From the NCBI GenBank assembly GCA_019057795.1, contig JAHLWS010000087.1:32001-96000 (forward strand): DNA of 64,000 nucleotides, given 5' to 3'. Positions 33,194 through 50,583 of this stretch are shown in pieces. Both the position numbers and the translations under genes were made by a program. The notes below the pieces were generated by a model that was given only the letters and a program-made list of their open reading frames with translations, had not been told where the DNA came from and did no database searches. The number at the start of each line of letters is the position of its first letter. Within the stretch, counting starts at the first letter, position 1. Source of the stretch: Promethearchaeota archaeon. Its GTDB lineage: Archaea; Asgardarchaeota; Lokiarchaeia; Sigyniarchaeales; SOKP01.

Positions 33194-35449
33194 TTAAATA
33201 TTTAATTTTTGGCGCCAAAAATTCATTTTCATTCTGAGGTCTTCTTTCTCCGGTTGACTAAGTACATATGTTTTATTCCTTAGAGTTGTGCTGGTATTAT
33301 GAATGTTCTTTAACACGCTGTTATATCCAGATTCTTTAATATATTCGCTTTGAAACTTTTCAAGAGCCGAAGAGAGTTCAATGCCCGTCAAAGAGTCAAC
33401 ATTATCAAAGATTAAGTCAAATTGTTTTGTCAACAAAGATTTTTCCCCGGATGGCGTTGTTTTTAGAACAGGCACCTCTTTTTCAGGTGGAGCAATTACT
33501 TTTGGTATCTGAACTATTGGTTTTAATTTTACGTGTTCTTTTAGTGGTTCTTCAGCGATCTTAACGGGTTCTTGAGCTAATTTCGGTGGTGGAGTTTCTT
33601 GTATAATTGATGACTTAATAGCATGCATAACTTCCTTTCTTGCGCCCATCCAGGATTCCTCTAGAATAGGGACAAAAATTTTGATATGTTCTTCTATAAT
33701 ACTTCCTATTCCAGCAATCTCAGTTATAGACTCCCCTCTCACTTCTGCTTTTGAAAGCACGCATACGATTACTTCTTCGTAATCTCGATTTATACCCCAT
33801 AAATTTTGTAAAGCGCGATGTCTATAATCCACATTATCCATTTTATCCATCTTTTGGATTACAGCTACGTGTTCGGGATTATCGAAATCTATATTTGCAG
33901 CTATTCTGAAATTTATCCTTGAAGGTCGCTCCATTATTGCGTTAATATCTATATCGCTGATTTGAGGGACAACGAGTAATACTCTCATTTTTGCTTTTGA
34001 AATTTCGTCGCTAATGTGTGCCTTAGCGGCTTCAGGGGAGCGAATGAACCAAATATCTTTCATTGTAATTGATCTCCCGGTTTTCGCTTGCTCCCAGAAT
34101 TCACTTGTGACTTTTTCGGATCTTTCGAGTTTATTCAATATATCATCAAGCGTATTATCTAAAGTTGCGACAATTTGTTCGTAAAAAACATCTTTTAAAT
34201 TGCCAAGCGATTGAAACGTCGTACCAGAGATTCCTTCTATTTTTTCTTCAGCCATTTTTATTGCTCTATTAAAATTTTCAGTAATATCCCCGTATATCTT
34301 CTCTTTATCTTCTTCTACCTTTGAGGTAAGACCATCAATATTTTCAAGGGTACTTTTTAATGATTCTTTCAATTTTGATATTAATTCAGAATCAACGCCT
34401 TGAGTCACTTTTTTAAGCTCGTCAGAGAATGCGACTTGGCTTACGGATAGTTGCACATTGATATTATCAGAGATTTCTTTTAATTTTGCGTTTACAACCT
34501 TATCAATCACTTGTTCAACAGCTTCGGAAATTACCCCAAGACGTAACTTCTGCAGATTTTGAGAGACAGTTGATTTAATGTTCTCAAATTCGTTCTTCAA
34601 ATCGCTAACCTGTCCTTTAATGATTTGAGATGTCTTTGTGTTAATATCATCAAATCTTTTTTTAAGATCGGCGATTTGAGGTGATTCCATAACCGAATCA
34701 GCGTATCCTTCGAGGTTTGAGATTTCATCTGAGATCCCTCTAATTTGATCCATTACTACTAATGTGTCGTCAAACTCTTTCTTCTGCGATTTAATCTGTG
34801 TTAGCATATTTTCTTTTAATTCGTTCATTAACTCAGTAGGTATGGGCTTTCTTTCAACTTTAACTTCAACCTTTCCAGACTCTGATTCTAACTGTGCAAA
34901 TGATTTTTCTAGTTGGGTAGGTATGTTGACTTTAATATCTGAGATATATTTGTGAAATTTTTTTAACTGGCTAACTAAGGCTGCGTATGGAGGTAGAGCG
35001 CTATAATGCGGTTTTGCTCCAATGATTTCCTTAAAAAGTCCTTTTTTAACAAATTTAGTCGCCATCTCTTGGCATTCAGCTTTAGGTTTTCCCGTTAAAA
35101 TTGCCATTTCGCCGATGCTAACGGCTTCACGACCCGTGATTCTGAAATACAGTTCAATCTCGTCGTCAGAGAGATCAATTTCGCTCAAAACTTGTTTTGT
35201 AAGTTCTTTTGAATAGGAAACTTCGTCTTTTTTGAGTATTTCCTTTATTTCAAAATTCTCGACTTCTAAATATTGATTAAAATAAACAATTAAATTATGT
35301 TCAGGGGATCCGTGTAGAATTTCTTTTTTAATCGGAAATTTTAAAACATCTTGGTATTCCTTCTTGGTTATTTTAAAAGGTATTTCTTTCAAACATAATT
35401 TACAGGTATATGGTATCTCTACTTCTTCCTTTTCTTTAAATAAATACAA
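33194..35449 (-). CDS. TrmB-like protein: N-terminal CxxC/HH Zn domain, winged HTH, long coiled coil, PLD-like effector domain
   Basis: CKLC...HGSPEH; LSDDEIELYFRI...SIGEMAILTG...KKGL...PHYSALPP (TrmB HTH); IWFIRS..A.AHI.DEISKAK.RVLLVVP (TrmB C-domain). Confidence 0.65.
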   Translation of the reverse strand: MYLFKEKEEVEIPYTCKLCLKEIPFKITKKEYQDVLKFPIKKEILHGSPEHNLIVYFNQYLEVENFEIKEILKKDEVSYSKELTKQVLSEIDLSDDEIELYFRITGREAVSIGEMAILTGKPKAECQEMATKFVKKGLFKEIIGAKPHYSALPPYAALVSQLKKFHKYISDIKVNIPTQLEKSFAQLESESGKVEVKVERKPIPTELMNELKENMLTQIKSQKKEFDDTLVVMDQIRGISDEISNLEGYADSVMESPQIADLKKRFDDINTKTSQIIKGQVSDLKNEFENIKSTVSQNLQKLRLGVISEAVEQVIDKVVNAKLKEISDNINVQLSVSQVAFSDELKKVTQGVDSELISKLKESLKSTLENIDGLTSKVEEDKEKIYGDITENFNRAIKMAEEKIEGISGTTFQSLGNLKDVFYEQIVATLDNTLDDILNKLERSEKVTSEFWEQAKTGRSITMKDIWFIRSPEAAKAHISDEISKAKMRVLLVVPQISDIDINAIMERPSRINFRIAANIDFDNPEHVAVIQKMDKMDNVDYRHRALQNLWGINRDYEEVIVCVLSKAEVRGESITEIAGIGSIIEEHIKIFVPILEESWMGARKEVMHAIKSSIIQETPPPKLAQEPVKIAEEPLKEHVKLKPIVQIPKVIAPPEKEVPVLKTTPSGEKSLLTKQFDLIFDNVDSLTGIELSSALEKFQSEYIKESGYNSVLKNIHNTSTTLRNKTYVLSQPEKEDLRMKMNFWRQKLNI

Positions 35450-35483: not shown

Positions 35484-36740
35484 TTAAAAAGTAACTTTTT
35501 CTGGAAAGGATATTTCCAATAAGTTTAAGGCTTTTTTAGCGATTTCATAAGTAATTTTTCCATCCGTTTCCTCCTTTCTATAAGCTTCTCTGATTTTTGG
35601 TAGTAAATATTCTGGAAAAATTGTTAGTGGTTTAATGTCCGTAAGCAAACAAATCCAACTTCTTTTATTTTCGTCTTTAATTTCAGTAATCACGTTTAAT
35701 TTCTTTAAATTATCAAGCAAAATTTCCGTGACGGCGAACTCTGAAAAGATTTTTGGTATTTTATCTAGTGGATAATGGTTCGAACGCATTAAGACGAAGA
35801 AATCATAAACATCAGGGTTAAGTAATATTGAAGCCAGTTTTTTGGTATTTTCAAAAGGTTCTGCATAGGGATCGTAATTTGTGAAATAGTCTGTAGATTT
35901 TTGCCTAAATAAAGGTAATAATTCGTTGTTTGTGTCCTTAAAATGCTTTAAGAGATTTTCGTTGGGAACACGGGCTAAAATTAAATCTTTGAGTAAAAAT
36001 AGATACTCTCCTTGATTTGTTATCACTCCAGTCTTTTTATCTTTCTCACCTTTTACCCAATCACGCCTTGCTAAGTTCAATTCTATAAAGGGTCTAAGTA
36101 AAATATCAATATTAGCTGTAGGTTTCATTTTTTCAACTATTTTTTTCATTTCGTTTTTTGAAATGGGTTGTTCTCTTAAAGTTTCTAAGATTTTTAACCG
36201 TTCATCGCTATTATAGATTAGAGCTACTTTTTGAAGTTTGTCTAATTGACTTAAACGCTCAATTTGAAATATGGTATACTTTAATTCGTTCATTAAACGG
36301 ACGTTTACGTTGGAAACTAAATCCAATTGCCTCGTATTTACAGCTTTAGTTAATTTTTCAAAAATAGTGTCTAATCTTTTTGCCATTTCTTTAATTAAAT
36401 CCTCAAACAATTCTATTTCGTCGTCTAATTCAAATATAGACATCGCAAGATATTGAGTTCCATCGGCTAACTGCTTGAAATACGACAAAACTTGATATGG
36501 CGTTTCTTTTAAGCGGCCAGTATAGAAATTACTGAATCCGTATTTCATGCCAATAATACCCGTTGTGTGTTGATAGAACGTGGCAAATATATCGTTCTCT
36601 ATGATCAGTTCTGAAAAGTCGTCTTCTTTAAATTTTTTATTCTTAAACACTAATTGAATTGGGCTAAATTCGGGATCTATCTCCCCTGTAGTTTCATTCT
36701 GATTCAATTTAAATTGAAATGTACAAATCGATTGTATCAA
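35484..36740 (-). CDS. Hypothetical protein, longin-like N-terminus plus winged-helix-like domains
   Basis: Long clean ORF co-oriented with the TrmB-like gene; ERLKILETLREQPISKNEM...ILLRPFIELNL wHTH-like. Confidence 0.5.
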   Translation of the reverse strand: MIQSICTFQFKLNQNETTGEIDPEFSPIQLVFKNKKFKEDDFSELIIENDIFATFYQHTTGIIGMKYGFSNFYTGRLKETPYQVLSYFKQLADGTQYLAMSIFELDDEIELFEDLIKEMAKRLDTIFEKLTKAVNTRQLDLVSNVNVRLMNELKYTIFQIERLSQLDKLQKVALIYNSDERLKILETLREQPISKNEMKKIVEKMKPTANIDILLRPFIELNLARRDWVKGEKDKKTGVITNQGEYLFLLKDLILARVPNENLLKHFKDTNNELLPLFRQKSTDYFTNYDPYAEPFENTKKLASILLNPDVYDFFVLMRSNHYPLDKIPKIFSEFAVTEILLDNLKKLNVITEIKDENKRSWICLLTDIKPLTIFPEYLLPKIREAYRKEETDGKITYEIAKKALNLLEISFPEKVTF

Positions 36741-36977: not shown

Positions 36978-38612
36978 TTGCTATTAAGGTTTAAAATAAA
37001 GAAAAGATTTGGAGTAATACTTCTAATTATAACGATTATTATTTTTAATGCGCTACCCCTTTTATTACCTATCAATTTTACAAGTAATAATGAGCAGTTA
37101 ATAATTAAACCCTCGGGTGAAACTTATTATACAGATGTTCTTTGGCTTGATAATCCGACATTCGAAGATCCGATTGAACCTATTTGGTTTCCCGATATTG
37201 AGGGAGATGAGTCAGATGTTGATACTAGTACAAGTCTAAATCAAGCAAATCTACAAATTTTAGGAGAAGAATATACATTTGAAGTAATAGCAGATCCACC
37301 AGATGGTAATTGGACTGCTGTTAATAATCCAAGTTTTCCTAGATTCCCAGATAATCATTTTACTGATTCAGTCGGATTAAATGTGTATCATTATTGGGAT
37401 GAAGACGAAGATCAAACCCATAATACACCCAGTGTACATTGGAAAAGGAATTTTACAATGCCGGTAAATATGGCTGATTATATAATTACTTCTGCTTCAA
37501 TTCAATCAACATTTAATGCAACAGTTACTGTGGGGCCTCATAGTGGAGGGGGTATAGATTGTCCTGGTGATACACTACCCCAATCTTCGACATTTGATTA
37601 TGCTAGATTTTATGTTTTAGTATCTGATCCTAATAATACGTATGAATATGAGATTGCTTATAACCAAACTGTTGATCTAGGTCAAGATTCTCCAGAAATA
37701 TCTAATTATAGCGATACGCGAATGGTAAATATTCCAGAAGACGTTTTAATTGCATTCTTAACATCTATTTTTAAAGAAAATAATTTTAATTTCACTATTA
37801 CATTAGGAATCGACATTTATTGTGAAGATAATGAACCAGGTGTTGATGAAGACAGGTGGGATTCATTAATCATTAGATCATTGGATTTTAAATTTACTTA
37901 CAGAAAGAAAATAGACCAATTTACTTCAGTATCTTGGAACCAAGAAGGTGCCGCAATTAGTGGAAGTAACAAGTTAATTACCGGAGCGACCCTTCTATTC
38001 AAATATAAAATTGATCAAGATTGGACTAGTTCTTCTCCTAATTCTGAAATAAGAGTTTTAATTAATAATAATCTACATTCAGAAACTATAAAATTAAGTA
38101 AAGTTACAAATACTTTTCAAGAGGCAAAAACCGGAGGTTATGATGTAACTTTCTTAATTTTAAAAGATGTCAATATAAGCCTTTCAATTCAAATATATTT
38201 AGCAGATGAGTTTGGTTTAGAAAAAGTAATAACTGTTTCGATCACAGATGTTTACCTTTATATATCTTATATTGTAACTTTTCCGGATATTTTTTCAGAA
38301 CCTTGGATATTTGCGGGATTATTTATTATTGCAATAATCGGTGCCTCACTTTTAGCAGCTTATCTTATTGCATATCAAACATACTTAAAATATCCTGTCC
38401 CGGTTAGAAAAGTTAGGAAATATAGAAAAACATTAACTAAAGAAAAAGATCCTGGAGTACACATAATTAAACGCAAGAGTTCATTTAAAAAAATCTTTCG
38501 AAACGAATTAGATAAAACATCTAAATTTTTAAAAGGCGCCCCTCTCGATGGCAAAATAATAAGAGAGAAATTAATAGGGAATCAACAAACGGGAAGCAAT
38601 TCAGAAAAATAA
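36978..38612 (+). CDS. Cell-surface glycoprotein with C-terminal TM helix and conserved cytoplasmic tail
   Basis: Basic+hydrophobic signal peptide, many NxS/T, beta-rich ectodomain, TM, then KYPVPVRKVRKYRKTL. Confidence 0.8.
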   Translation: MLLRFKIKKRFGVILLIITIIIFNALPLLLPINFTSNNEQLIIKPSGETYYTDVLWLDNPTFEDPIEPIWFPDIEGDESDVDTSTSLNQANLQILGEEYTFEVIADPPDGNWTAVNNPSFPRFPDNHFTDSVGLNVYHYWDEDEDQTHNTPSVHWKRNFTMPVNMADYIITSASIQSTFNATVTVGPHSGGGIDCPGDTLPQSSTFDYARFYVLVSDPNNTYEYEIAYNQTVDLGQDSPEISNYSDTRMVNIPEDVLIAFLTSIFKENNFNFTITLGIDIYCEDNEPGVDEDRWDSLIIRSLDFKFTYRKKIDQFTSVSWNQEGAAISGSNKLITGATLLFKYKIDQDWTSSSPNSEIRVLINNNLHSETIKLSKVTNTFQEAKTGGYDVTFLILKDVNISLSIQIYLADEFGLEKVITVSITDVYLYISYIVTFPDIFSEPWIFAGLFIIAIIGASLLAAYLIAYQTYLKYPVPVRKVRKYRKTLTKEKDPGVHIIKRKSSFKKIFRNELDKTSKFLKGAPLDGKIIREKLIGNQQTGSNSEK

Positions 38613-38788
38613 AAAATGATTTTTTTCAAAATGTTATCTTTTATTATCAAATCTTTTTAATTCATAATATTTGGTCAAACCCATTCTCATCAAATTAATT
38701 TAAAAGCATAATTTTACTAATTATTAATATTGACATCTTATATTAAGAATTTATAATCATTCTTATAATTACAAAAGGTATAAAGAAT

Positions 38789-41700
38789 ATGAATTTAGCA
38801 ACAAATAGAAAGAAGAGATTGTACGCGTTATTGACTCTTTTAAGTATTTTCGTAGTAAATGCAGCTATAATAAATTTTACCTACATCCCAAATAATTTAA
38901 ATGAAAAAATAATTAAAAAAGTTATAGATGTTCCTAAAAATAACGATCTTACTTCTGATAATAAGTATAATGGTATAGGAGATGCATGGAATATTACTCA
39001 TTGGGCAAATCGTACGGATTATGATCTCCCCGCAAGTTTTGAAGAGAATTCATATGATATGGTGGAAATGCCCTTAGGTACCGATTGGGTTGGTTATAAA
39101 TTAAATGCCTCAATTAATAATCTATATGATTCAAGAAACTGGAATAATGGAACTTTTAATTTTGGTGATAATAATACATATGCTACCGGGGAAGACGATT
39201 CTTTATACATTACAAATAGTTATCAAAATTGGACTTTTCATGAAAATGTTGTTGGTTCTTCAAATGTTATGTCTGGAAATTATCTAGATAAAAATGCTGT
39301 AACACCAGTTAATACCCAAAACCATGATAGTTTAGAATTAAGAATGGCGGGAAATAGATACAATGATTCTGGGGATCCATATTGGTATAGATATCGGTAT
39401 GATACCGGAGATAAATGTTCATGGTCAAGTTCTTTTCATATTCCAAGAGGAAAGGTTATTGATAGTTGGTTAAAATTTCAAGTAAATCCAATCCATATAA
39501 TAAGTTTTAACTCTTGGGAGTTTAGAATATTTTTAAATGGTATTAAAGTTTATTCTGATGGCTTGTTTACATTAAAACAGCGAGGACAAAATACATGGCA
39601 TAATTTCACAATTCCTCAGGGACTTTGGATAAACACATCAGATGTTTATTCAACAACCTTCTTAAATGATTCAAATATTAGTATCGAAATTGCTTTAGAA
39701 TATACAGCAACGAGTGCGGGTTATGGGTATGAAGATGGTGAAAATAGAGATTATCAACAAGTTCTTATTGATAACGTAGAATTAGAAACTAAAGCTGAAG
39801 CTCAACCTTCAGACATACAATTAAAAAGTAATAATACAATTGTGGAAGATATTAGTTGGGGGAAAGGAAAAGTAGAAATTAATGGTAATTGGCAGAGTGT
39901 TGATGGGAAGGTATATACTAATTTTAGTTGCGATGATGTTGGCCAATTGGGAGCTTTTTCTATTGATATACTAAGTGATTTAAACCTTCATGCGATAAAA
40001 CATACGCCTGAAAGTAATTATGAAACTAATGTAGGGTCTATTGGAACAAAATTTTCTGTAAATAATGAAAGTTCAGTTAATTGGTTATGTTATGGTCGAG
40101 TTAATGTACCTACGAGGTATGAGGAAACAGAATTGAAAATTAATTTTCCCACTGATGTTAATATTACCTCCGTTTTTGATCCTCAGAACCCTTCTTTAAA
40201 TATTCTGAGCCAGTGTGATAATTCGACTCCAGGTGTTTTATCAATACCCGTAAATACTATTTCACTTACTCCAGATGGATTTTGGAAATTTGAAGCAGTT
40301 TCACCTAACTATTGCAAAGATTTAATGATCTACAATAACGAAACTGGAGCCTGGATTCGAAATAATAACTTCCTAAGCGGTGATTTTATTAATATTACCG
40401 CAAAAATTACAAATTCTCCAGAAATATCTAGTTACATTCAAAATACAAAAGCATTTCTTCAAATTAGGTTTCCGAATGGCACTTTATGGTCTGATCAAAG
40501 TCAATTTGCTTCAGTCGATATTAATGGTAATGTTATTTTTATGCTGTTTCAAATACCCACAGCTCCACCAAATTACGAAGTTGGAGAATATGAGGCAATT
40601 ATAACTTGGAATAATTCTTATTCTATTTATGGTTTAAATGAAACGGGTATTATTTATAAGAAATTTAATATAATCCATGAATCTAAGCTTGTTCCTGACG
40701 AATTTTATTATGAAGATATGAAAGAAAATTCTAGTTTTAATTTAAAAATATCTTTCTCCGACTCAGTAGATAATGAACCTATAACAAATGCTATAGTATA
40801 TACATTTAATTTTACTCATCCTTCAGTAAAGCAATATTTTAGTGAAATAAGTCCCGGTTATTATTTTCTCGAATTCAACGTAGAGGATGGAATATTAGGT
40901 AATAATACTTTAAGTATTTATGCTAATTCGTCTAATTATGAGAATAAAGTAGTTAATATCAAAATTGAGGTGATTAGAGAAACAGAGCTTACTGTTGATA
41001 ATGATTTTATAAATAATGTACTTTTTGAGCAGAATTTTACCATTCAATTCAATTATACTGAAAAACTTTCTAGTACAGGAATTAATCCGGATTCTCTCTC
41101 AACCGATTGGTTAGGTAATTATTCTTTCATTGAAATAGCCACAGGGAGATATAATTTAACATGCAGTACCCTTGGTTATAATGCAGGTCAACTTTATACA
41201 TTAAATCTTTATGTAGATGCCTATAAATATGAAGCTAAATCTATATCAATAAAAGTTTATATTACTGAACTTAAATCATCTTTAGAATTGTTTGTTAATA
41301 GTAATGCACTACAACCTAATGATGTATTTACTGTTGATGTATGGGAAAAGATAAACATAACAGTTTTTTATAAGGATATACACGGAAATCCCTTAACTGG
41401 GGCAATAATAAATGTAACAAGTGGGTCTTTTTCATATCAATTAAATGAAAATCTTTTATTTAATCACTACAGTTTAATTTTGGATGCTACTGAATTAGAA
41501 CAAGGAATTGATAATCTTGTTGTTTTTGCTCAATTGGTTAATTATGAACCACAAACTATTCCATTTATAGCAGAAATTATAGAAAGGTCAACAATCATCG
41601 AAATTTTATTTGATGGGGTAAATAAGACAGATGATCCTACAATAGATATTACTATTGGTCAAACATTAAATATTACTGTAAATTATATGGATGATGAGTA

Positions 41701-42538
41701 TCATCACATACAAGGGGCAATGGCACAGCTTTCTGGTGATTTAATTGGGAATTTGAGTGAAAACTTAATATTTGAGCAATATTCATATATTTTAGATACA
41801 TCTCAGTTAGATATTGGAGTTAGAATTATCACTCTTTCTGCTTCAAAAACAAACTTTCAGCTTCAAACTGAGAATCTTAGAGTAAATATTCAAAGAATAA
41901 GGACAAATATTACTACAATATCGGGCGAATCAATATTTACGATTCAATCGGGAAATAATATTCTCCTACAATTAATTTTGAATAACGAGGATTTTGGGGG
42001 TACGATTAAAAATGCAAATCTAACATATAGATGGCAATTTGGAGAAGGAGAACTTATTGATCCTGATTCTGATGGAATATATGAAACGACATTAACCAAT
42101 TTACCAGTTGGGTCATACACAATTACTATTACTGCTGATAAAGGCGATAATTATGATTTTGAAAGGTATCAAATAACAATTACGGTAATTAACCCTCCAA
42201 ATGAATTTTTAATTTTCTTGATTCTTTTAATTACAGCTTCTATAACAGCAGTGTCATTAGTTAGTTATCTAATATTATACAAAAAAGTTTTGAGATATCC
42301 AAAACAAGTAAGAAAGGTTAGAAAATATCGAAGAACTTTAAAAAAAGCGAAGAATCCAAAGATAAATATAATACCACGTAAAGAAGCGTTCAATAATCAA
42401 TTTAAAGATGAAATAGGTAACACTTCTACATTATTAAAGGGAAAACCTTCAGAAAGTATAATTCAAGTAGATAAATTAAAAGCAATAAAGTTAATGAATG
42501 AATCTGATAACCAAACAAATGATGGAGGGAATAAATAA
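38789..42538 (+). CDS. Large cell-surface glycoprotein (jelly-roll-like N-region, Ig-like repeats, TM, conserved tail)
   Basis: Signal peptide, about 100-aa beta repeats, DPDSDG motif, TM, RYPKQVRKVRKYRRTL. Confidence 0.82.
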   Translation: MNLATNRKKRLYALLTLLSIFVVNAAIINFTYIPNNLNEKIIKKVIDVPKNNDLTSDNKYNGIGDAWNITHWANRTDYDLPASFEENSYDMVEMPLGTDWVGYKLNASINNLYDSRNWNNGTFNFGDNNTYATGEDDSLYITNSYQNWTFHENVVGSSNVMSGNYLDKNAVTPVNTQNHDSLELRMAGNRYNDSGDPYWYRYRYDTGDKCSWSSSFHIPRGKVIDSWLKFQVNPIHIISFNSWEFRIFLNGIKVYSDGLFTLKQRGQNTWHNFTIPQGLWINTSDVYSTTFLNDSNISIEIALEYTATSAGYGYEDGENRDYQQVLIDNVELETKAEAQPSDIQLKSNNTIVEDISWGKGKVEINGNWQSVDGKVYTNFSCDDVGQLGAFSIDILSDLNLHAIKHTPESNYETNVGSIGTKFSVNNESSVNWLCYGRVNVPTRYEETELKINFPTDVNITSVFDPQNPSLNILSQCDNSTPGVLSIPVNTISLTPDGFWKFEAVSPNYCKDLMIYNNETGAWIRNNNFLSGDFINITAKITNSPEISSYIQNTKAFLQIRFPNGTLWSDQSQFASVDINGNVIFMLFQIPTAPPNYEVGEYEAIITWNNSYSIYGLNETGIIYKKFNIIHESKLVPDEFYYEDMKENSSFNLKISFSDSVDNEPITNAIVYTFNFTHPSVKQYFSEISPGYYFLEFNVEDGILGNNTLSIYANSSNYENKVVNIKIEVIRETELTVDNDFINNVLFEQNFTIQFNYTEKLSSTGINPDSLSTDWLGNYSFIEIATGRYNLTCSTLGYNAGQLYTLNLYVDAYKYEAKSISIKVYITELKSSLELFVNSNALQPNDVFTVDVWEKINITVFYKDIHGNPLTGAIINVTSGSFSYQLNENLLFNHYSLILDATELEQGIDNLVVFAQLVNYEPQTIPFIAEIIERSTIIEILFDGVNKTDDPTIDITIGQTLNITVNYMDDEYHHIQGAMAQLSGDLIGNLSENLIFEQYSYILDTSQLDIGVRIITLSASKTNFQLQTENLRVNIQRIRTNITTISGESIFTIQSGNNILLQLILNNEDFGGTIKNANLTYRWQFGEGELIDPDSDGIYETTLTNLPVGSYTITITADKGDNYDFERYQITITVINPPNEFLIFLILLITASITAVSLVSYLILYKKVLRYPKQVRKVRKYRRTLKKAKNPKINIIPRKEAFNNQFKDEIGNTSTLLKGKPSESIIQVDKLKAIKLMNESDNQTNDGGNK

Positions 42539-42540
42539 TA

Positions 42541-45500
42541 ATGAGGATAAAAAACAAAAGAAAAATTAACCGTTCGGCGATTATTAGGGTCTTTTTAATT
42601 ATTCTTTTAACTCTTGATTTATCTAGTCTTAACTTGAATCAGCTAATTCCCACTGATAATAAGGAGATTCAAAGAAACATTTTTGATCTTGAAAATACAC
42701 TTAATAGCCAAGATGTATCTTTTGATAATATACATAGCGGTATTGGTGCACCTTGGAATTTAACTCACTGGGCAAACAGAACAGATTACGATTTATCAGT
42801 AAGCTTTCCTGAAGGGGCCAACGATATGGTTGATATTCCTTTAGGTAGTAGTTGGAAAGGGTACAAATTAAGCGCAAATATTAATGATTTGGTTGATAAG
42901 CGGAATTGGAATAATGGTACTTTCAATTTTGGTGATGATGATGGAACTGATGCTGCTGGAGAAAATGATACTAATGATATAACAAATATTTATCAAAATT
43001 GGACATTTGTGAAAAATGATACAGGTCTCGGTAATAATTATATGAGCGGTAATTATAATTCGAGTGTGGGAGGAAATAATTGTTTAGAATTAAGAATGGA
43101 TGGTAATAACACTGTTGTATCTGGTCCACTTGAATGGTGGACATATGACCCTGATGATAAATGTTGGTGGAGCAGCTCCATACAAATACCACGTGGAAAA
43201 ATAATTGATAGTAGTTTGAAATTTGATCTATATCCAAATCATTTAGCACATTTTAATTCATGGGCATTTGCTATATATTTAAATGCTAAAAGAGTTTATT
43301 CTATAGGTACTTTTACATTATCACAGTATGGACAAGATGCGTGGCACAGTTTTACTATTCCTCAAAATATCTGGACGAATACATCTAATGTTTTTTCGAA
43401 TAATCCTATAAATAATTCATTAATTGATATTAAACTTGCTCTAGAATGTGTAGGTGGTGGAAATTTTTCTGGTTTTGCAAATAGGACTTTCCAAAGGGTA
43501 TATGTTGATAATGTTGAATTAATTACCAAGGCAGAAGTTCTTCCATCTTATATTGAATTAAACATGAACCAAACAATTGTACAAGATATTGACTGGGGTC
43601 GAGGGACTGTTGAAATTGAAGGGGAATGGGAATCTACTACAGTCTTTGCAAATTTCAGTAGTACTGATGTAGGAGAATTGGGAAATTATGACATTAATTT
43701 AAAGACTAACTTGAATTTATATGGGATCAAGCATACTCCAGAAACAAATTATGAAACTGATGTTGGCTCATTAGGGACTGTTTTTTCTGTAAGTAATGCA
43801 AGTACTGTGAATTGGGAGAGTTATGGTTTTATTGCTATTCCAACGGGATATTCTGAGTCAGAGATGAGACTTGAATTTCCGATTGATGTCATTATTACTT
43901 CCGTTTTTGAACCTGAAAATCCTTCTACCAATATTTTAATCTTATGTGACAATTCTATACCTGGAAGATTAATAATACCAGTAGATGCTATTTCCACTAC
44001 TCCTGACGGATTTTGGAAATTTGAAGCTGTTTCACCTAATTATTGCGAAGATTTAATGATCTATAATAATGCAACAGGAGCCTGGATTCGAAATAATAAC
44101 TTCTTAAGCGGTGATTATATTAATATTACTGCAAAAATTACCAATTCTCCGGTAATATCTAGTTACATTCAAAGCACAAAAGCGTTTCTTCAAATTCGGT
44201 TTCCAAATGGTACTTTATGGTCTGATCAAAGTCAATTTGCTTCAGTTGATTCAAATGGTAATGTAAATTTTATGCCGTTTCAAATACCTTCAGTACTACC
44301 GAATTACGAAGTTGGAGAATATGAGGCAATAGTTACCTGGAATAATTCCTACTCTATTTACGATTTGAATGAAACAGGTATTCTTTATAAAAAATTCAAT
44401 ATAATCCACGATTCTATTTTAATCCCAGATATTAATTATTTTGAAGATGTAATTGATGGTTCTGTATTAAATTTAAGAGTATCATTTAATGATTTACAGA
44501 ATTTTGATGCTATTGAAAATGCGATTGTATACACTTATAATTTCACTCATCCTTCAATAATTCAATATTTCAGCGAAATAAGCCCAGGTTATTACTTTCT
44601 TGAATTTAATGTTACTGGGGCTCCGAATGCTGGTAATAATACCTTAACCATCTATGCTAGTTCGCCTAATTTTATAAATAATGAAGTAAATATAACAATC
44701 GATATCATTAAAAATACAGTTCTTACAGTTGATAATGATTATTTAACAGGAGTTCCAATCGAGCAGAACTTTACAATTCAATTATCTTATACTGAAAGCT
44801 ATAGTGGTATGGGAATTGACACAAATAATCTTTCGACAAATTGGGCAGGTGAATATCACTTTGCTACGATTACTCAAGGATTATATACTCTTACTTGTAA
44901 TGCTTCTGGTCCGGGATACCAACCAGACAAGCTTTATTCAATGATAATTACAGTTAAAGCTAATAGATATCAACCTCAATCAATTCCAATTAGAATTTTT
45001 ATAACTAAAAAAGCATCATTTTTGGAATTATATGTAAATGGCACTCAAAAGTTTGAAGACGATTTAGTTTCAATTGAATTTTGGCAACAATTAAATATTA
45101 CAATAACTTATAAAGATGTCTCCTCTAGACATTTAGGCGGTGCGTCAATAAAATTAACCGGAGGAGGAATTTCCAAACCATTAATAGAAAAGCCAATTCT
45201 AGGTCAATATAGTCGTTTATTAAATGTCTCTGAATTAGGTTTAGGGCTTGATTATTTATCAATATTTGCTAATGTATCTAATTATCTCCCTCAATCTATT
45301 CGCTTTATTACTGAAGTAACTAAAAGAAAAACCCTATTGGAAATCTACTTAAATGGAGTTGATAGAACTACTGATCCATCTATTGATATTGCTATCGGTG
45401 ACTTTTTAAATATTACTATAAGATATACTGATACGAATGGTAATCACATTGAAAATGCTGCAGTTAATTTGTTTGGAGCCATCTCAAATAGCTTAATTGA

Positions 45501-46251
45501 AGATAAAACATTAAAACAATATTCATACATTTTGAATACAAGCATTTTAGATATTGGAATCAGAATGATTGCTATTTCGGCAGAGAAAGAAAATTACGAA
45601 CTTCAGACTGATGATCTCAGAATCGAAATCAGACGGATTTTTACGAATATTACCACTGAGGATGGAATTTCTAGAATTTCTGCCCATCCAGGAGATAATG
45701 TGGTAATTAAAATTATTTTGTATGATTTAGATTCTGGAGAAACCATAAAAGGCGCGATTGTGTCATACAGTAGTCCTTATGGACAAGGATATTTAACAGA
45801 TCCAGATAATGATGGGATATATGAGGTAGTATTTGAAAATATACCTGAAAGTACTTTTAAAATTACCATTTCAGCTTTTTATGGGGATAATTATGATTTT
45901 GAAAATTATGAAATAACGATTAGTGCTATAAGACCAGCAGCAGAAGCATTATTGCTTCTAATTTTAATAATTGCTATAACTTCAGCGGCTATAATAATAG
46001 GGGGGTATATATATGCTTACCAAAAATATTTAAAATATCCCAAACCCGTCAGAAAAGTTCGAAAATACCGAAAAACACTGAGAAAAACAAGCGATCCAAG
46101 AACGGATATAAAGGAGAGAGAGAAGGCATTCAAAGTTGAATATAAAACTGAATTAGATAAAACATCTAAATTATTAAAAGGAAAACCCGTAGAACCAATT
46201 ATTAAACTAGAAAAGATTCTAAAGAAACCAGTTGAAGGTTCTAATAATTAA
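42541..46251 (+). CDS. Large cell-surface glycoprotein, full-length paralog of 38789..42538
   Basis: Colinear with the previous gene (WNxTHWANRTDYDL, NWNNGTFNFG, TPDGFWKFEAVSPNYC), DPDNDG, TM, KYPKPVRKVRKYRKTL. Confidence 0.82.
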   Translation: MRIKNKRKINRSAIIRVFLIILLTLDLSSLNLNQLIPTDNKEIQRNIFDLENTLNSQDVSFDNIHSGIGAPWNLTHWANRTDYDLSVSFPEGANDMVDIPLGSSWKGYKLSANINDLVDKRNWNNGTFNFGDDDGTDAAGENDTNDITNIYQNWTFVKNDTGLGNNYMSGNYNSSVGGNNCLELRMDGNNTVVSGPLEWWTYDPDDKCWWSSSIQIPRGKIIDSSLKFDLYPNHLAHFNSWAFAIYLNAKRVYSIGTFTLSQYGQDAWHSFTIPQNIWTNTSNVFSNNPINNSLIDIKLALECVGGGNFSGFANRTFQRVYVDNVELITKAEVLPSYIELNMNQTIVQDIDWGRGTVEIEGEWESTTVFANFSSTDVGELGNYDINLKTNLNLYGIKHTPETNYETDVGSLGTVFSVSNASTVNWESYGFIAIPTGYSESEMRLEFPIDVIITSVFEPENPSTNILILCDNSIPGRLIIPVDAISTTPDGFWKFEAVSPNYCEDLMIYNNATGAWIRNNNFLSGDYINITAKITNSPVISSYIQSTKAFLQIRFPNGTLWSDQSQFASVDSNGNVNFMPFQIPSVLPNYEVGEYEAIVTWNNSYSIYDLNETGILYKKFNIIHDSILIPDINYFEDVIDGSVLNLRVSFNDLQNFDAIENAIVYTYNFTHPSIIQYFSEISPGYYFLEFNVTGAPNAGNNTLTIYASSPNFINNEVNITIDIIKNTVLTVDNDYLTGVPIEQNFTIQLSYTESYSGMGIDTNNLSTNWAGEYHFATITQGLYTLTCNASGPGYQPDKLYSMIITVKANRYQPQSIPIRIFITKKASFLELYVNGTQKFEDDLVSIEFWQQLNITITYKDVSSRHLGGASIKLTGGGISKPLIEKPILGQYSRLLNVSELGLGLDYLSIFANVSNYLPQSIRFITEVTKRKTLLEIYLNGVDRTTDPSIDIAIGDFLNITIRYTDTNGNHIENAAVNLFGAISNSLIEDKTLKQYSYILNTSILDIGIRMIAISAEKENYELQTDDLRIEIRRIFTNITTEDGISRISAHPGDNVVIKIILYDLDSGETIKGAIVSYSSPYGQGYLTDPDNDGIYEVVFENIPESTFKITISAFYGDNYDFENYEITISAIRPAAEALLLLILIIAITSAAIIIGGYIYAYQKYLKYPKPVRKVRKYRKTLRKTSDPRTDIKEREKAFKVEYKTELDKTSKLLKGKPVEPIIKLEKILKKPVEGSNN

Positions 46252-46406
46252 AGAGTCAAATTAATATAAAATCTAGTTAATTTTTCATTTTTCAATTTTT
46301 TATTTTCACATAATATATAATATTTCTCAAAATAATTACTAAGCAATATAATTTAAATAAATAGTAAAGAAAATTGAAATATTATCATAATTTAATGATT
46401 GTATAG

Positions 46407-47468
46407 ATGAGTTCTAATATTAAAATTTTTAAGTTAAATTATTCTGGAACCTTTAAGGAAATTTCAGAAGAGAAGATACTCCTTAACTTTACTCTATTCG
46501 ATATTTTAACATTTTACGTGCCAAATCAAAGATTAATGTATATTTGGATTGGGAAAAAAGTCTCGCAAAGTTTGAAAAAACTTATCCCACAAATACGAGG
46601 AGCTATTTCAAGTGAGTATCCCGAATTAAAGATTTTAAGAAACATTACAATCGAATCGGGATTAGAACCTGCCGAATTTTTAAGTATTATTGGGGTTACA
46701 GAAGAGGTCCTGAAAGCTAGAATTAAAAAGCTAGAGATTAATTTGTTACCAATTCTCTCTGAAATAAACAGGTTAAAAGAAAAGGTAGATAAGTATTTCA
46801 TTTCAGAAAATTACAATATGGCAATTAATGCTGCTCAGAAAATTGTTAACCTTGCCAAGGATATAGACGATGATTCTCTTGAGCAAGATCAAATCAACTT
46901 TATCAACGAAGCTCAATCGAAAGCGCACGCTAGCGAAGCTCTCTACCAAATAGAGCATCAAAGTAAGGAAGTTATTAAACAATTTAACCAGTTAGTGGAG
47001 GTAGAGGATTATCGAGAGGCACATAGCCTAGCAGAAGATTTTAAAAGAAAATACGAAAATGAATACGACATTTCTTCAATTCCCTTAGCCCAGCAATTAA
47101 TATTAAAAGATGAAAACATGATATATAGTTTGAAAATCGAACAAGAAAAGATAAAAAAGGAAATTGATGAATTCTATAATTCTTTTAAGACAGGTCCCAA
47201 TAAAGGTAATTTAAAGCAAGCAAAAGAATTTTTTGGAAAAATTAAAGCTGAGATTAAGAATTTATTTGATGATGATGTTTTAAATAGTTTGAAACAATTT
47301 GAAGCCCGATATAATGAAGCAAAAAAAGAAACAGTTAGTGAAATAGCTCAAGTAAGTATGGAAGCCCTTAATAATTTGGAAAAAGGTGAAATATCTAAAG
47401 CTATAGAAATCTTTGAAAAAATTATCAAAAAATTAGAATTTAACAATAAAACATTGACGGGTGCATAG
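46407..47468 (+). CDS. Gelsolin-like domain protein with C-terminal TPR/coiled-coil region
   Basis: N-terminal about 97 aa: IKIFKL...F..FDIL.F....LMYIWIGKKVS...ITIESGLEPAEFLSII, matching the gelsolin repeat pattern. Confidence 0.7.
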   Translation: MSSNIKIFKLNYSGTFKEISEEKILLNFTLFDILTFYVPNQRLMYIWIGKKVSQSLKKLIPQIRGAISSEYPELKILRNITIESGLEPAEFLSIIGVTEEVLKARIKKLEINLLPILSEINRLKEKVDKYFISENYNMAINAAQKIVNLAKDIDDDSLEQDQINFINEAQSKAHASEALYQIEHQSKEVIKQFNQLVEVEDYREAHSLAEDFKRKYENEYDISSIPLAQQLILKDENMIYSLKIEQEKIKKEIDEFYNSFKTGPNKGNLKQAKEFFGKIKAEIKNLFDDDVLNSLKQFEARYNEAKKETVSEIAQVSMEALNNLEKGEISKAIEIFEKIIKKLEFNNKTLTGA

Positions 47469-47470
47469 TA

Positions 47471-48439
47471 TTGGATTTAAACTCAGACAAAGAGACTAAT
47501 AATAAGAAAAAAATAGTAGTTTTATCTAAAATTGATGAGTTGAAAGTAATAGCGAATAACCACTATCTAATGGGCAAATTTGATGAAGCAATAAAAATAG
47601 CAGAAGAAATAATGGATATAGCTGAAGGAGCTAAATTATATTCTATTGTAAGGGAGGAAGGAGAGTTCATTGCAGAGCTTTATAAAAAAGTTAAAGATAA
47701 TAATAAATTTATTGAAATTGAAAAACAACAAAATATTCTAAAAAAACAACTTGAACCATTAGAAATCCAGTTTAATAGCTACATAAGTACTAATAATATC
47801 ACATTAGCAGAAGAAACATTAGAACAAGCAAAAACTCTCCTAAAAAAGCTTAAAGATACCGAAACGCTGAAAATGTGGGAAACATCTGAAGCAATGTTTT
47901 TAGAATTAAGAAAAAAGATTGATATCAATGAAGACATTGAACATTCATTGGCAGAAGTTTCAAGATTAATAGATAATTACGAATTTGATAAGGCAAAACA
48001 AATACTTAACTCTAAGATAGAATTTTTGCAAAAAGAAGATTTCTTAGATCATCAACAGAAATTAAAAATAAAAATGAAAAGTTTAATTGATGCTGAGGAT
48101 AAATATTTTAAATTAGAAGAAGATTTAAAAGATTTAGAAAGCGAAATTAAACAAAATGTTTCTCAAAATCAATTTGAGCAAGCAATAAACAATATTAAGA
48201 AAATCGTTAAAATTTCAAGGTTTATTGGTAAAAGTAATTACTTAAAGAAATACACTGAATATATCGATATTATTGAAAATAAGATAAGGGAAGTTTCCAA
48301 AATCGAAGATTTAAAAACTAAGGTTAACAATATAAACGTCCAAGGCATCGAAGCCTTGAAATATGACGATTATTCTGGAGCTCTTGAAATATTTAAAGAA
48401 ATATTGAACCAATTAAAAGCTGTTTTTAATAAAAAATAG
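47471..48439 (+). CDS. TPR-like / coiled-coil helical repeat protein
   Basis: Repeated GKFDEAIKIAEEI, YEFDKAKQIL, NQFEQAINNIKKI, DDYSGALEIFKEI; starts 2 nt after the gelsolin-like gene ends. Confidence 0.65.
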   Translation: MDLNSDKETNNKKKIVVLSKIDELKVIANNHYLMGKFDEAIKIAEEIMDIAEGAKLYSIVREEGEFIAELYKKVKDNNKFIEIEKQQNILKKQLEPLEIQFNSYISTNNITLAEETLEQAKTLLKKLKDTETLKMWETSEAMFLELRKKIDINEDIEHSLAEVSRLIDNYEFDKAKQILNSKIEFLQKEDFLDHQQKLKIKMKSLIDAEDKYFKLEEDLKDLESEIKQNVSQNQFEQAINNIKKIVKISRFIGKSNYLKKYTEYIDIIENKIREVSKIEDLKTKVNNINVQGIEALKYDDYSGALEIFKEILNQLKAVFNKK

Positions 48440-48544
48440 TTTTTATTTTCTTCTTAATAACCAGTTTAATTAATATCAAACGGTTTATAATTTTTTAACG
48501 AAGGTATTAAATAGTAAAAATTCTATATAATTTTTGGATTAAAA

Positions 48545-48991
48545 TTGATCCAAGAGATTATTATTCTTAATGACATGGGTATTCCCATATTTTGCCATAA
48601 CTTTAGCGGTAGTTCAAATAAGGATAATAATTATCAATTAATTGGTAGCTATTTCGACCAAATTTGCCGATTTGCCAAATACGGGTTCAAAGAAAGTTTA
48701 ACCACTATAAAAATGAAAAAAAGCGTATTTTATTTTAAAACGCATCCTAAAACTAATTTTCATCTAATATTAAAATGTGATAGTAAAGTCGATAATAAAA
48801 AGCTTAAAAAAAAGGCAATTGATAATATTGCAGTTAAAATCTTTGATAATTTCTTTGTTAAATTTAAAAGAGAATTGATGAATTTTAACGGAAATATTGC
48901 TCCTTTTAAAATTTTTTCTAAAGATATTGATGAGATGATAAAACCTAAAGGGCTTTTGAGAAATTTTGTAATAAGTCCTGGAGTTTTTTAA
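48545..48991 (+). CDS. Stand-alone longin-like (sybindin/sedlin-like) protein
   Basis: IQEIIILNDMGIPIF...LIGSYF..I..FA...LTTIKM...FHLILKCD...FF.KF....FNGNI..F..F. Confidence 0.65.
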   Translation: MIQEIIILNDMGIPIFCHNFSGSSNKDNNYQLIGSYFDQICRFAKYGFKESLTTIKMKKSVFYFKTHPKTNFHLILKCDSKVDNKKLKKKAIDNIAVKIFDNFFVKFKRELMNFNGNIAPFKIFSKDIDEMIKPKGLLRNFVISPGVF

Positions 48992-49632: not shown

Positions 49633-50583
49633 CTACATTCCTATAAAGTGAGGAGTATCCTTAATCTTTCTCCTACCACCGCACACGTCACACTTTGTAC
49701 CGTCTTCAAATTTACCCTTACCGCCACATTTTGGACATTTAACCTTTCTATTGAACGCCAAGATTCCTTCTTTAGCATCAGAGGATACTTGGTTGATTCC
49801 AAAACCCATTTGCTCCATGATAAGGCCTAATTGTGGATAGCGCGTTCCAAATTTAACACCCTTCTTTATAACGAATAATGCTGTTGTTGGAGCATCACCA
49901 AGCCATTTGGCTTTTTCGTGGACAAGTTTTTCAAATTCTTCTCCAGCAGGTGCAATCCAAGTGACAAGTCCCCAATCGAGCATCGTTTTAGCATCGAAAT
50001 GCTCACCAAAATAAGCCATGCGGAGTGCTCTATTAAGTCCTACTCTTTCTGCCATGCGGGTAATACCACCATTAGCAGGAAAGATTCCTCGATTGATTTC
50101 AGGTACCCCAAATATTGATCGATCAGAAGCAATAACAATATCGCATGTAAGTACTAATTCGATACCCCCGCCTAATGCAAAACCGTCAACAGCAGCAATT
50201 AAGGGTTTATTAAATTGTTCTAATTCATCATAATCACGATGTCGTAATCTCATAGCTAAAGCCATATGCCAAGGGATATTTGGTTTTAGATCTTTGCCGA
50301 AACCAGCACCTAAATCAGCACCTACCGAAAAGGAAGGTTTTTTAGTTACATTCTTTGTACCTCGTAATACTACTGCTCTTACGCTCGGATCAGTTTCCAT
50401 AAGTCGTAAAGCTTGAGCAAGTTCTGAAACTGTTTGATTTGTTAAAGCATTTAATCGATCTGGTCTATCGATCGATATTACTGCGTAATTTCCATCAATT
50501 GTCCCTTCTCGAATAACATTACCTTGTATGTCTGTTTTTGTTGGCCATTCAATTTTAATATGTTCAAATACATTTTCCGACAT
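49633..50583 (-). CDS. Enoyl-CoA hydratase with DnaJ-type Zn finger inserted in the C-terminal tail
   Basis: FSVGADL, DGFALGGGIEL, PEINRGIFP; CPKCGGKG...CDVCGG between EGILAF and PHFIG. Confidence 0.88.
   Translation of the reverse strand: MSENVFEHIKIEWPTKTDIQGNVIREGTIDGNYAVISIDRPDRLNALTNQTVSELAQALRLMETDPSVRAVVLRGTKNVTKKPSFSVGADLGAGFGKDLKPNIPWHMALAMRLRHRDYDELEQFNKPLIAAVDGFALGGGIELVLTCDIVIASDRSIFGVPEINRGIFPANGGITRMAERVGLNRALRMAYFGEHFDAKTMLDWGLVTWIAPAGEEFEKLVHEKAKWLGDAPTTALFVIKKGVKFGTRYPQLGLIMEQMGFGINQVSSDAKEGILAFNRKVKCPKCGGKGKFEDGTKCDVCGGRRKIKDTPHFIGM

Follow-up and report, generated by a model that had tools for sequence, protein, structure and literature searches.

How are the membrane and the surface proteins of Lokiarchaeia connected to their actin? 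Cultured members of the group have protrusions that are filled with actin and studded with surface proteins not yet identified (PMC9834061). Candidates that bear on this connection lie in a stretch of 64,000 nucleotides, here called the window (G000:C87:32001-96000, from contig JAHLWS010000087.1), of a 4.95-Mb, AT-rich Lokiarchaeial Asgard assembly. Three genes for surface proteins with a common tail are followed there by genes for a gelsolin-domain protein, a second helical protein and a longin, and a preliminary description had proposed that the tails are linked to the gelsolin, helical and longin products as adaptors towards actin. As far as comparative genomics can speak, it does not support this surface-to-actin link: across about 150 related genomes (the order counts 154, family f1 134 and family f3 14) the tail genes travel with two upstream genes, up418 and up751, which that description had omitted. 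We lean towards reading the locus as two conserved Lokiarchaeial modules that have come to lie side by side, rather than as one demonstrated system. This reading draws on open reading frames, folds, paralogy and phyletic and syntenic patterns.

The six genes are labelled g1 to g6 in order along the + strand, and up418 and up751 are two - strand genes 5' of g1; genera, which also carry g numbers, are always written with the word genus.

33194-35449, - strand: up751, 751 aa, weak match to a TrmB-type winged helix, then a long stretch of helices.
35484-36740, - strand: up418, 418 aa, constant neighbour of the tail-protein genes.
36978-38612, + strand: g1, 544 aa, single-pass surface protein by open reading frame, hydrophobicity and tail profile; tail at 38373-38612.
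38789-42538, + strand: g2, 1249 aa, surface glycoprotein-like with probable Ig-like/beta-sandwich repeats; tail at 42305-42538.
42541-46251, + strand: g3, 1236 aa, paralogue of g2; tail at 46018-46251.
46407-47468, + strand: g4, 353 aa.
46407-46700, + strand: gelsolin-fold domain of g4, residues 1-98, from the PDB match, Foldseek and VIA.
46701-47468, + strand: C-terminal helical-hairpin repeats of g4, an 'X' domain of the 1DGelX type, from AF2 helices 99-343.
47471-48439, + strand: g5, 322 aa, gelsolin-less paralogue of the g4 helical body.
48545-48991, + strand: g6, 148 aa, stand-alone longin fold, from AF2, Foldseek and VIA.

All six co-oriented reading frames of the preliminary description were found again, and none of their products matched a Pfam or NCBIfam family above threshold. 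Its claim that g1, g2 and g3 are single-pass proteins ending in a common cytoplasmic module also holds. Each has an N-terminal hydrophobic segment and a single C-terminal transmembrane segment (residues ~9-35 and ~438-468 in g1), and then a basic tail of roughly 60-75 aa, 19-25 of them lysine or arginine, with one motif in all three: Y-P-x-P-V-R-K-V-R-K ... P ... R ... A-F ... E ... K-G. While g2 and g3 are paralogues with 54% identity, the likeness of g1 to them is restricted to the last ~190 aa, that is, the membrane-proximal part, the transmembrane segment and the tail; the g1 ectodomain is of its own type, and g1 orthologues in relatives are 39-52% identical. The tail profile recovers g1 at E 1.3e-30 and g2 at E 1.9e-28, matches five reading frames of this genome and is found in 134 of the 154 genomes of the order. 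Among 1.84 billion proteins it picks out 183 representatives, with the match nearly always at the C-terminus and sizes of about 550, about 1100 (double units) or 1200-2000 aa. Across 24 aligned tails V-R-K-V-R-K, L21, P27 and R34 are invariant, and it is against this tail, with its many invariant positions, that the 40-50% identity of the ectodomains has to be set. Both long proteins are rich in N-X-S/T sequons, with 40 in g2 against 20.7 +/- 4.1 expected from composition and 35 in g3 against 17.5 +/- 3.7, and sub-threshold Pfam matches in g2 (CarboxypepD_reg, Big_1, PKD) suggest Ig-like or beta-sandwich repeats in the ectodomains.

Relatives also encode 'double' proteins of ~1100-1190 aa, in which two complete g1-like units, each with ectodomain, transmembrane segment and tail, stand in one frame (L003:6554-9895, L005:6504-9875, L065:5439-8873, L066:8818-12381), and several database representatives show two tail matches; these proteins may be multi-pass, or fused tandem genes. 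Just 3' of the window, within G000:C87:100068-106607, lies the gene for a fourth surface protein, a g2/g3-family member of 1196 aa with a degenerate tail. About 2 kb upstream of it, and divergent from it, lies a gene for a 304-aa protein that joins a longin-like N-terminus to an Arf-family GTPase domain.

What, then, would read the tail? The constant genomic partners of the tail genes are up418 and up751, which makes their products, and up418 in particular, the more likely readers. Matches to up418 occur in 144 of the 154 genomes of the order and in all 39 of the high-quality ones, and the pair is more conserved than g1-g6, with identities within the family of 73-83% for up418 and ~62% for up751. 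They adjoin tail genes in 13 genera; in genera g2 and g7 one or two other genes intervene. The window follows this pattern: g1-g3 form, with 35484-36740 and 33194-35449, a cassette of surface-tail gene, up418 and up751, which differs from the cassette elsewhere in that the gelsolin/helical/longin module is inserted at its 3' side in genus g1. Family f3 has up418, up751 and a tail protein in this order, co-directional and nearly gapless, without the GNAT/ECH flank (L072-L074), and the present genome itself holds a second cassette, a tight co-directional operon at C65:104356-111881 in which the tail protein is followed by paralogues of up418 and up751:

C65:104356-108702: second tail-bearing surface protein, 1448 aa.
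C65:108703-109866: up418 paralogue, E 1.5e-45.
C65:109872-111881: up751 paralogue, E 2.5e-94.

Neither a gelsolin nor a longin gene is present in this second cassette. Module A would thus consist of g1-g3 as variable type-I surface glycoproteins with a strongly conserved, family-specific basic tail, together with up418 and up751 as genomic partners whose products probably read that tail. The surface-protein tails are, in other words, genomically tied to a different and universally conserved gene pair, and pull-down and modelling effort is thereby redirected away from a surface-to-actin model that is attractive but weakly supported.

The second module begins with g4, whose proposed gelsolin-like domain is borne out by sequence and by structure. 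As a single sequence in phmmer, residues 1-98 match PDB 7c2f_B, the Thorarchaeota ProGel, at E 3.2e-4; a 37-sequence profile finds the same entry at E 1e-4, the Loki 2DGel 7whg at 0.009 and, at lower significance, villin, adseverin and a Heimdall 2DGel, and the Pfam model PF00626 gives nothing on g4 at E <= 1. The AF2 model (pLDDT 85.5) shows the gelsolin/cofilin fold in these residues, a mixed beta-sheet between one long and one short helix. Its top Foldseek match is again 7c2f_B (TM 0.79, E 3.4e-4), and VIA superposes 88/88 residues on ProGel with Z 12.4 and rmsd (root-mean-square deviation) 2.0. The other top matches of the head are all actin-binding gelsolin-family domains (gelsolin, villin, adseverin), and Sec23/24 is absent among the top sequence and structure matches.

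Behind the head, helices 99-343 are modelled as four long-helix/short-helix hairpins. This body has no good global structural match, only local ones of ~60 aa to TPR/MIT-like units (the TPR units of LGN/Pins at Z 10.7 over 62 aa). The description of g4 and its neighbour as TPR or helical proteins therefore stands for helical-hairpin repeats, which both have in homologous form; TPR proper is only a loose fit, since the Pfam scores stay under the cut-off (TPR_2 on g5 at 21.7 bits against 27; TPR matches of g4 at E >= 0.04). That neighbour, g5, does start 2 nt past g4, as reported. The g4 profile finds it at E 8.8e-18 in this genome and its counterparts at 1e-25 to 1e-37 in relatives, and on these profile matches g5 is a head-less paralogue of the g4 helical body. 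An orthologue of g5 stands behind g4 in every f1 genus examined (genera g1, g5, g6, g7, g11, g12 and g13), with gaps of -4 to 46 nt and hhalign probabilities of 97-100%. By these syntenic data the two genes form a genuine, tight and conserved pair across family f1. They are probably translationally coupled and would make a heteromeric helical scaffold with one actin-binding head; module B would consist of this pair, with g6 more loosely attached.

By its build, g4 falls under the published definition of 1DGelX, one gelsolin domain plus a helical non-gelsolin C-terminus (PMC7444086). In vitro, the Thor 1DGelX binds rabbit actin (dissociation constant 7.7 uM), promotes nucleation at low doses and severs without needing calcium (PMC7444086). 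Among Lokiarchaeia, MK-D1 has been reported to have two 1DGelX proteins and GC14_75 to have three (PMC9433394). Like the Asgard 1DGelX/ProGel of Akil et al. 2020 (PMC7444086; PDB 7C2F), which is also the best sequence and structure match of its head, g4 has one gelsolin/cofilin-type domain and a helical 'X', and at 353 aa it is close in size to actin, as reported for 1DGelX. Unlike the Thor proteins, to which it is not detectably orthologous, the g4 family is restricted to a single order: it occurs in 99/134 genomes of f1, 11/14 of f3 and essentially none elsewhere (400 genomes), and its profile gives two weak matches among 89 genomes outside the order. Its X domain differs, too, in being a four-hairpin repeat with a head-less paralogue as obligate downstream neighbour, and in the longin genes that recur beside it; neither feature was found described. 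A family always accompanied by a head-less paralogue and often by a longin offers a testable partner set for a class of Asgard gelsolins that is active biochemically and yet functionally unplaced.

Do the two modules belong together? In the window's own genus g1, ~30 genomes keep the order tail protein, g4, g5, g6, and the flanking genes have stayed as well, up751/up418 at one end and GNAT-ECH-HCDH at the opposite end; taken by itself, conservation within this genus therefore shows colinearity and not function. The conserved neighbourhood that had been expected in Lokiarchaeia thus exists in genus g1 and largely fails beyond it, the full arrangement being limited to this genus and part of genus g11. 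In the best-sampled sister, genus g12, all five tail loci examined (L063-66, L069) read up751 and up418 in one direction, tail protein(s) in the other and then GNAT-ECH-HCDH, which is the block of the window minus g4-g6, and in at least 19 genomes of that genus three parts, namely the tail genes, the g4-g5 pair and g6, are scattered over separate contigs or are >60 kb apart. Tail and up418 matches occur with no match to the g4 profile in seven genomes from genera g2 and g6 (G145-147, G149, G158-160), whose completeness is 89-100%. On this syntenic and phyletic evidence module A is independent of module B. Module B lies between module A and the GNAT gene in genus g1 and part of another genus, a position that is, by parsimony, derived. 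No paper describing either arrangement, that of tail, up418 and up751 or that of g4, g5 and a longin, was found in the literature.

Several observations weigh against reading the locus as two modules. The six genes share one orientation, are closely packed and keep their arrangement in ~30 genomes of the genus; genus g11 has reshuffled the inner order and yet kept the two sets linked, two of its genomes having three tail genes, g6, g4 and g5 (L048 is an example), which could mean selection for linkage. Moreover, some of the synteny within a single order is simply inherited: in f1 the GNAT-ECH-HCDH genes have remained neighbours too, so that the position of up418 beside tail genes in this family does not alone prove function. 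Stronger support for the tie between up418/up751 and the tail comes from the f3 operon and the second cassette.

The linkage kept in genera g1 and g11 is also what speaks for one integrated surface-to-cytoskeleton system, in which the tails of g1-g3 recruit a g4/g5 scaffold and g6 and so couple adhesin-like ectodomains to Lokiactin. A tail more conserved than its ectodomains implies a cytoplasmic reader, and the head of g4 is a gelsolin domain of the actin-binding type. We nevertheless find such a system doubtful. Its parts are separable, as genus g12 demonstrates; near-complete genomes have tails and no g4; and the second tail cassette of this very genome pairs with up418/up751 paralogues, with no gelsolin or longin. 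The spacing of the genes points the same way. The gaps from g1 to g6 are, in order, 176, 2, 155, 2 and 105 nt, and the spacers 3' of g1, g3 and g5 open with T5-T7 runs 0-30 nt past the stop codon, with TATA-like AT-rich stretches further along. The T-runs suggest four transcription units, g1, g2-g3, g4-g5 and g6, although in spacers of 15% GC this is weak evidence, and likely terminators would then part g3 from g4 and g5 from g6. A complex prediction of g4, g5 and g6, each with alignment, against the g3 tail scored 0.01 where the mark is 0.32 and counts neither way. The resemblance to integrin-talin/kindlin, namely single-pass glycoproteins with a short conserved tail near a gene resembling an actin regulator, is one of analogy only: no part is homologous, and the tails are linked in the genome to up418/up751 and not to the gelsolin module. 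It is likewise unlikely, in our estimate, that modules A and B are coupled in genus g1 alone, with the tails, perhaps via up418, recruiting the g4/g5 scaffold and g6. If true, such coupling would be an archaeal GTPase-tunable link from surface adhesins to Lokiactin and a functional precursor of the adhesion complexes or endocytic adaptor complexes of eukaryotes.

That g6 is a stand-alone longin, as the preliminary description had it, is supported by structure. The AF2 model (pLDDT 73) has the DSSP topology beta-beta-alpha-beta-beta-beta-alpha-alpha expected of the domain, and all 32 Foldseek matches at E <= 1e-3 are longins. By sequence, g6 has no match in the PDB and nothing at E <= 1 in Pfam, Clat_adaptor_s included. 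The E-value ranking of Foldseek is led by the AP-2/AP-3 sigma subunits, and the longins of TRAPP, COPI zeta, Fuzzy and Mon1-Ccz1 are also high in Foldseek or VIA; the VIA Z values are 14.4 for Fuzzy, 13.7 for TRAPP Trs23, 12.5 for AP sigma, 12.3 for Sec22b and 11.2 for the Lokiarchaeial Roadblock-Longin. The match to AP/COPI small subunits is no better than that to other longin subfamilies, and on model comparison the fold alone is insufficient to assign g6 to one of them. In fold and size it resembles the eukaryotic longin subunits (AP sigma and mu N-terminal, COPI zeta, TRAPP Bet5/Trs23/Tca17, Fuzzy/Inturned, Mon1-Ccz1), like sigma-adaptin and zeta-COP it is a stand-alone longin of ~145 aa with C-terminal helices (Z 11-14), and it has the same fold as the Lokiarchaeial Roadblock-Longin (PDB 8YQG). 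It differs from the eukaryotic subunits in having no sequence-level relation to them, and from their complexes in that no adaptin-type large subunits, TRAPP partners or GTPase stand beside it in the window; an adaptin-like fold was not seen for its helical neighbours g4 and g5.

The orthologue of g6 is single-copy in 107 of the 134 f1 genomes and stands beside g4-like genes in genus g1 and in two genomes of genus g11. Elsewhere a different protein of ~690 aa, TPR with a C-terminal longin, follows g4-like genes (G175 in f1, G135 and G138 in f3). Members of this family are 30-35% identical over their full length, and their longin domain is related to that of g6 (hhalign 96%, E 3e-9). The f3 protein was considered as a g5-g6 fusion and rejected, the homology probability between its TPR part and g5 being 0.3%. 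By sequence and gene order, then, g4-like genes repeatedly have longin-bearing neighbours, in forms that are not orthologous to one another, and g6 or the TPR-longin would probably dock on the g4/g5 scaffold and link it with a small GTPase. A third genus g11 genome, G175, has two tail genes, a gene for a 767-aa protein (L049:6967-9270), g4, g5 and two TPR-longin genes. The product of this intervening gene has a weak match to the adaptor-complex mu-homology domain (PF00928, E 0.007); it was rejected as a member of the cluster, its orthologue in the present genome lying elsewhere (G000:C21:45221-47392).

These longins invite the alternative that g4, g5 and g6 are not actin regulators but a trafficking or GTPase-regulatory adaptor, resembling a coat or a guanine nucleotide exchange factor, in which the gelsolin-like domain would, like that of Sec23/24, offer a contact surface for proteins or GTPases and the basic tails could be sorting signals. 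The AP-2/AP-3 sigma subunits at the head of the Foldseek ranking and Fuzzy and TRAPP at the top by VIA Z would agree with this, as would an Arf-family GTPase gene next to a TPR-longin homologue in f3. The locus in question (L041:9992-15156, in G138, a 6.0-Mb single-contig genome) encodes an 847-aa gelsolin-helical protein, a 684-aa TPR-longin and a 171-aa Arf-family GTPase (PF00025, E 3e-26). Yet the longin fold does not discriminate subfamilies, the head matches are to actin-binding domains and not to Sec23/24, and a genome such as the present one has about 80 small-GTPase matches, so that one adjoining Arf gene is a hint only; the cluster of the window has no GTPase gene, and no Arf-family gene was found near it. 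An adaptor of this kind therefore seems to us unlikely.

As to what the proposed tail readers are, up418 and up751 gave no usable match in the PDB, either as single sequences or as profiles, and up418 falls into no recognisable family. A likeness of up751 to BIN2/BAR (single-sequence E 0.0013) was not reproduced with a profile and was dropped, hhalign with the g6 profile shows no relation of up418 to the longin, and no fusions of up418 to longer proteins were found, which is weak evidence. That the two are local winged-helix, TrmB-like transcription factors, with the tail serving topology or stability and no dedicated adaptor, we hold to be improbable, for although three up751 orthologues match PF01978 (TrmB) weakly over the whole model (E 2e-3, 0.024 and 2.5e-4), up418 has a weak match of the winged helix-turn-helix type (HVO_A0261_N) and regulators often adjoin their target genes, all these Pfam matches lie under the curated cut-offs, a tail of ~60 aa with many invariant positions past the positive-inside stretch exceeds the needs of topology, and up418 is, at its level of identity, far more conserved than the fast-evolving genes it would regulate.

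Two observations concern the surroundings of the cluster. Relatives have a 202-aa PF00626 gelsolin gene, of 2DGel size, ~5 kb downstream of the cluster and after a peptidase M50 gene (L003:17151-17759, L005:17271-17879). The enoyl-CoA hydratase encoded at 49633-50583 on the - strand of the window has a sub-threshold match to a DnaJ-type CXXCXGXG zinc finger at residues 263-304 (E 5e-4).

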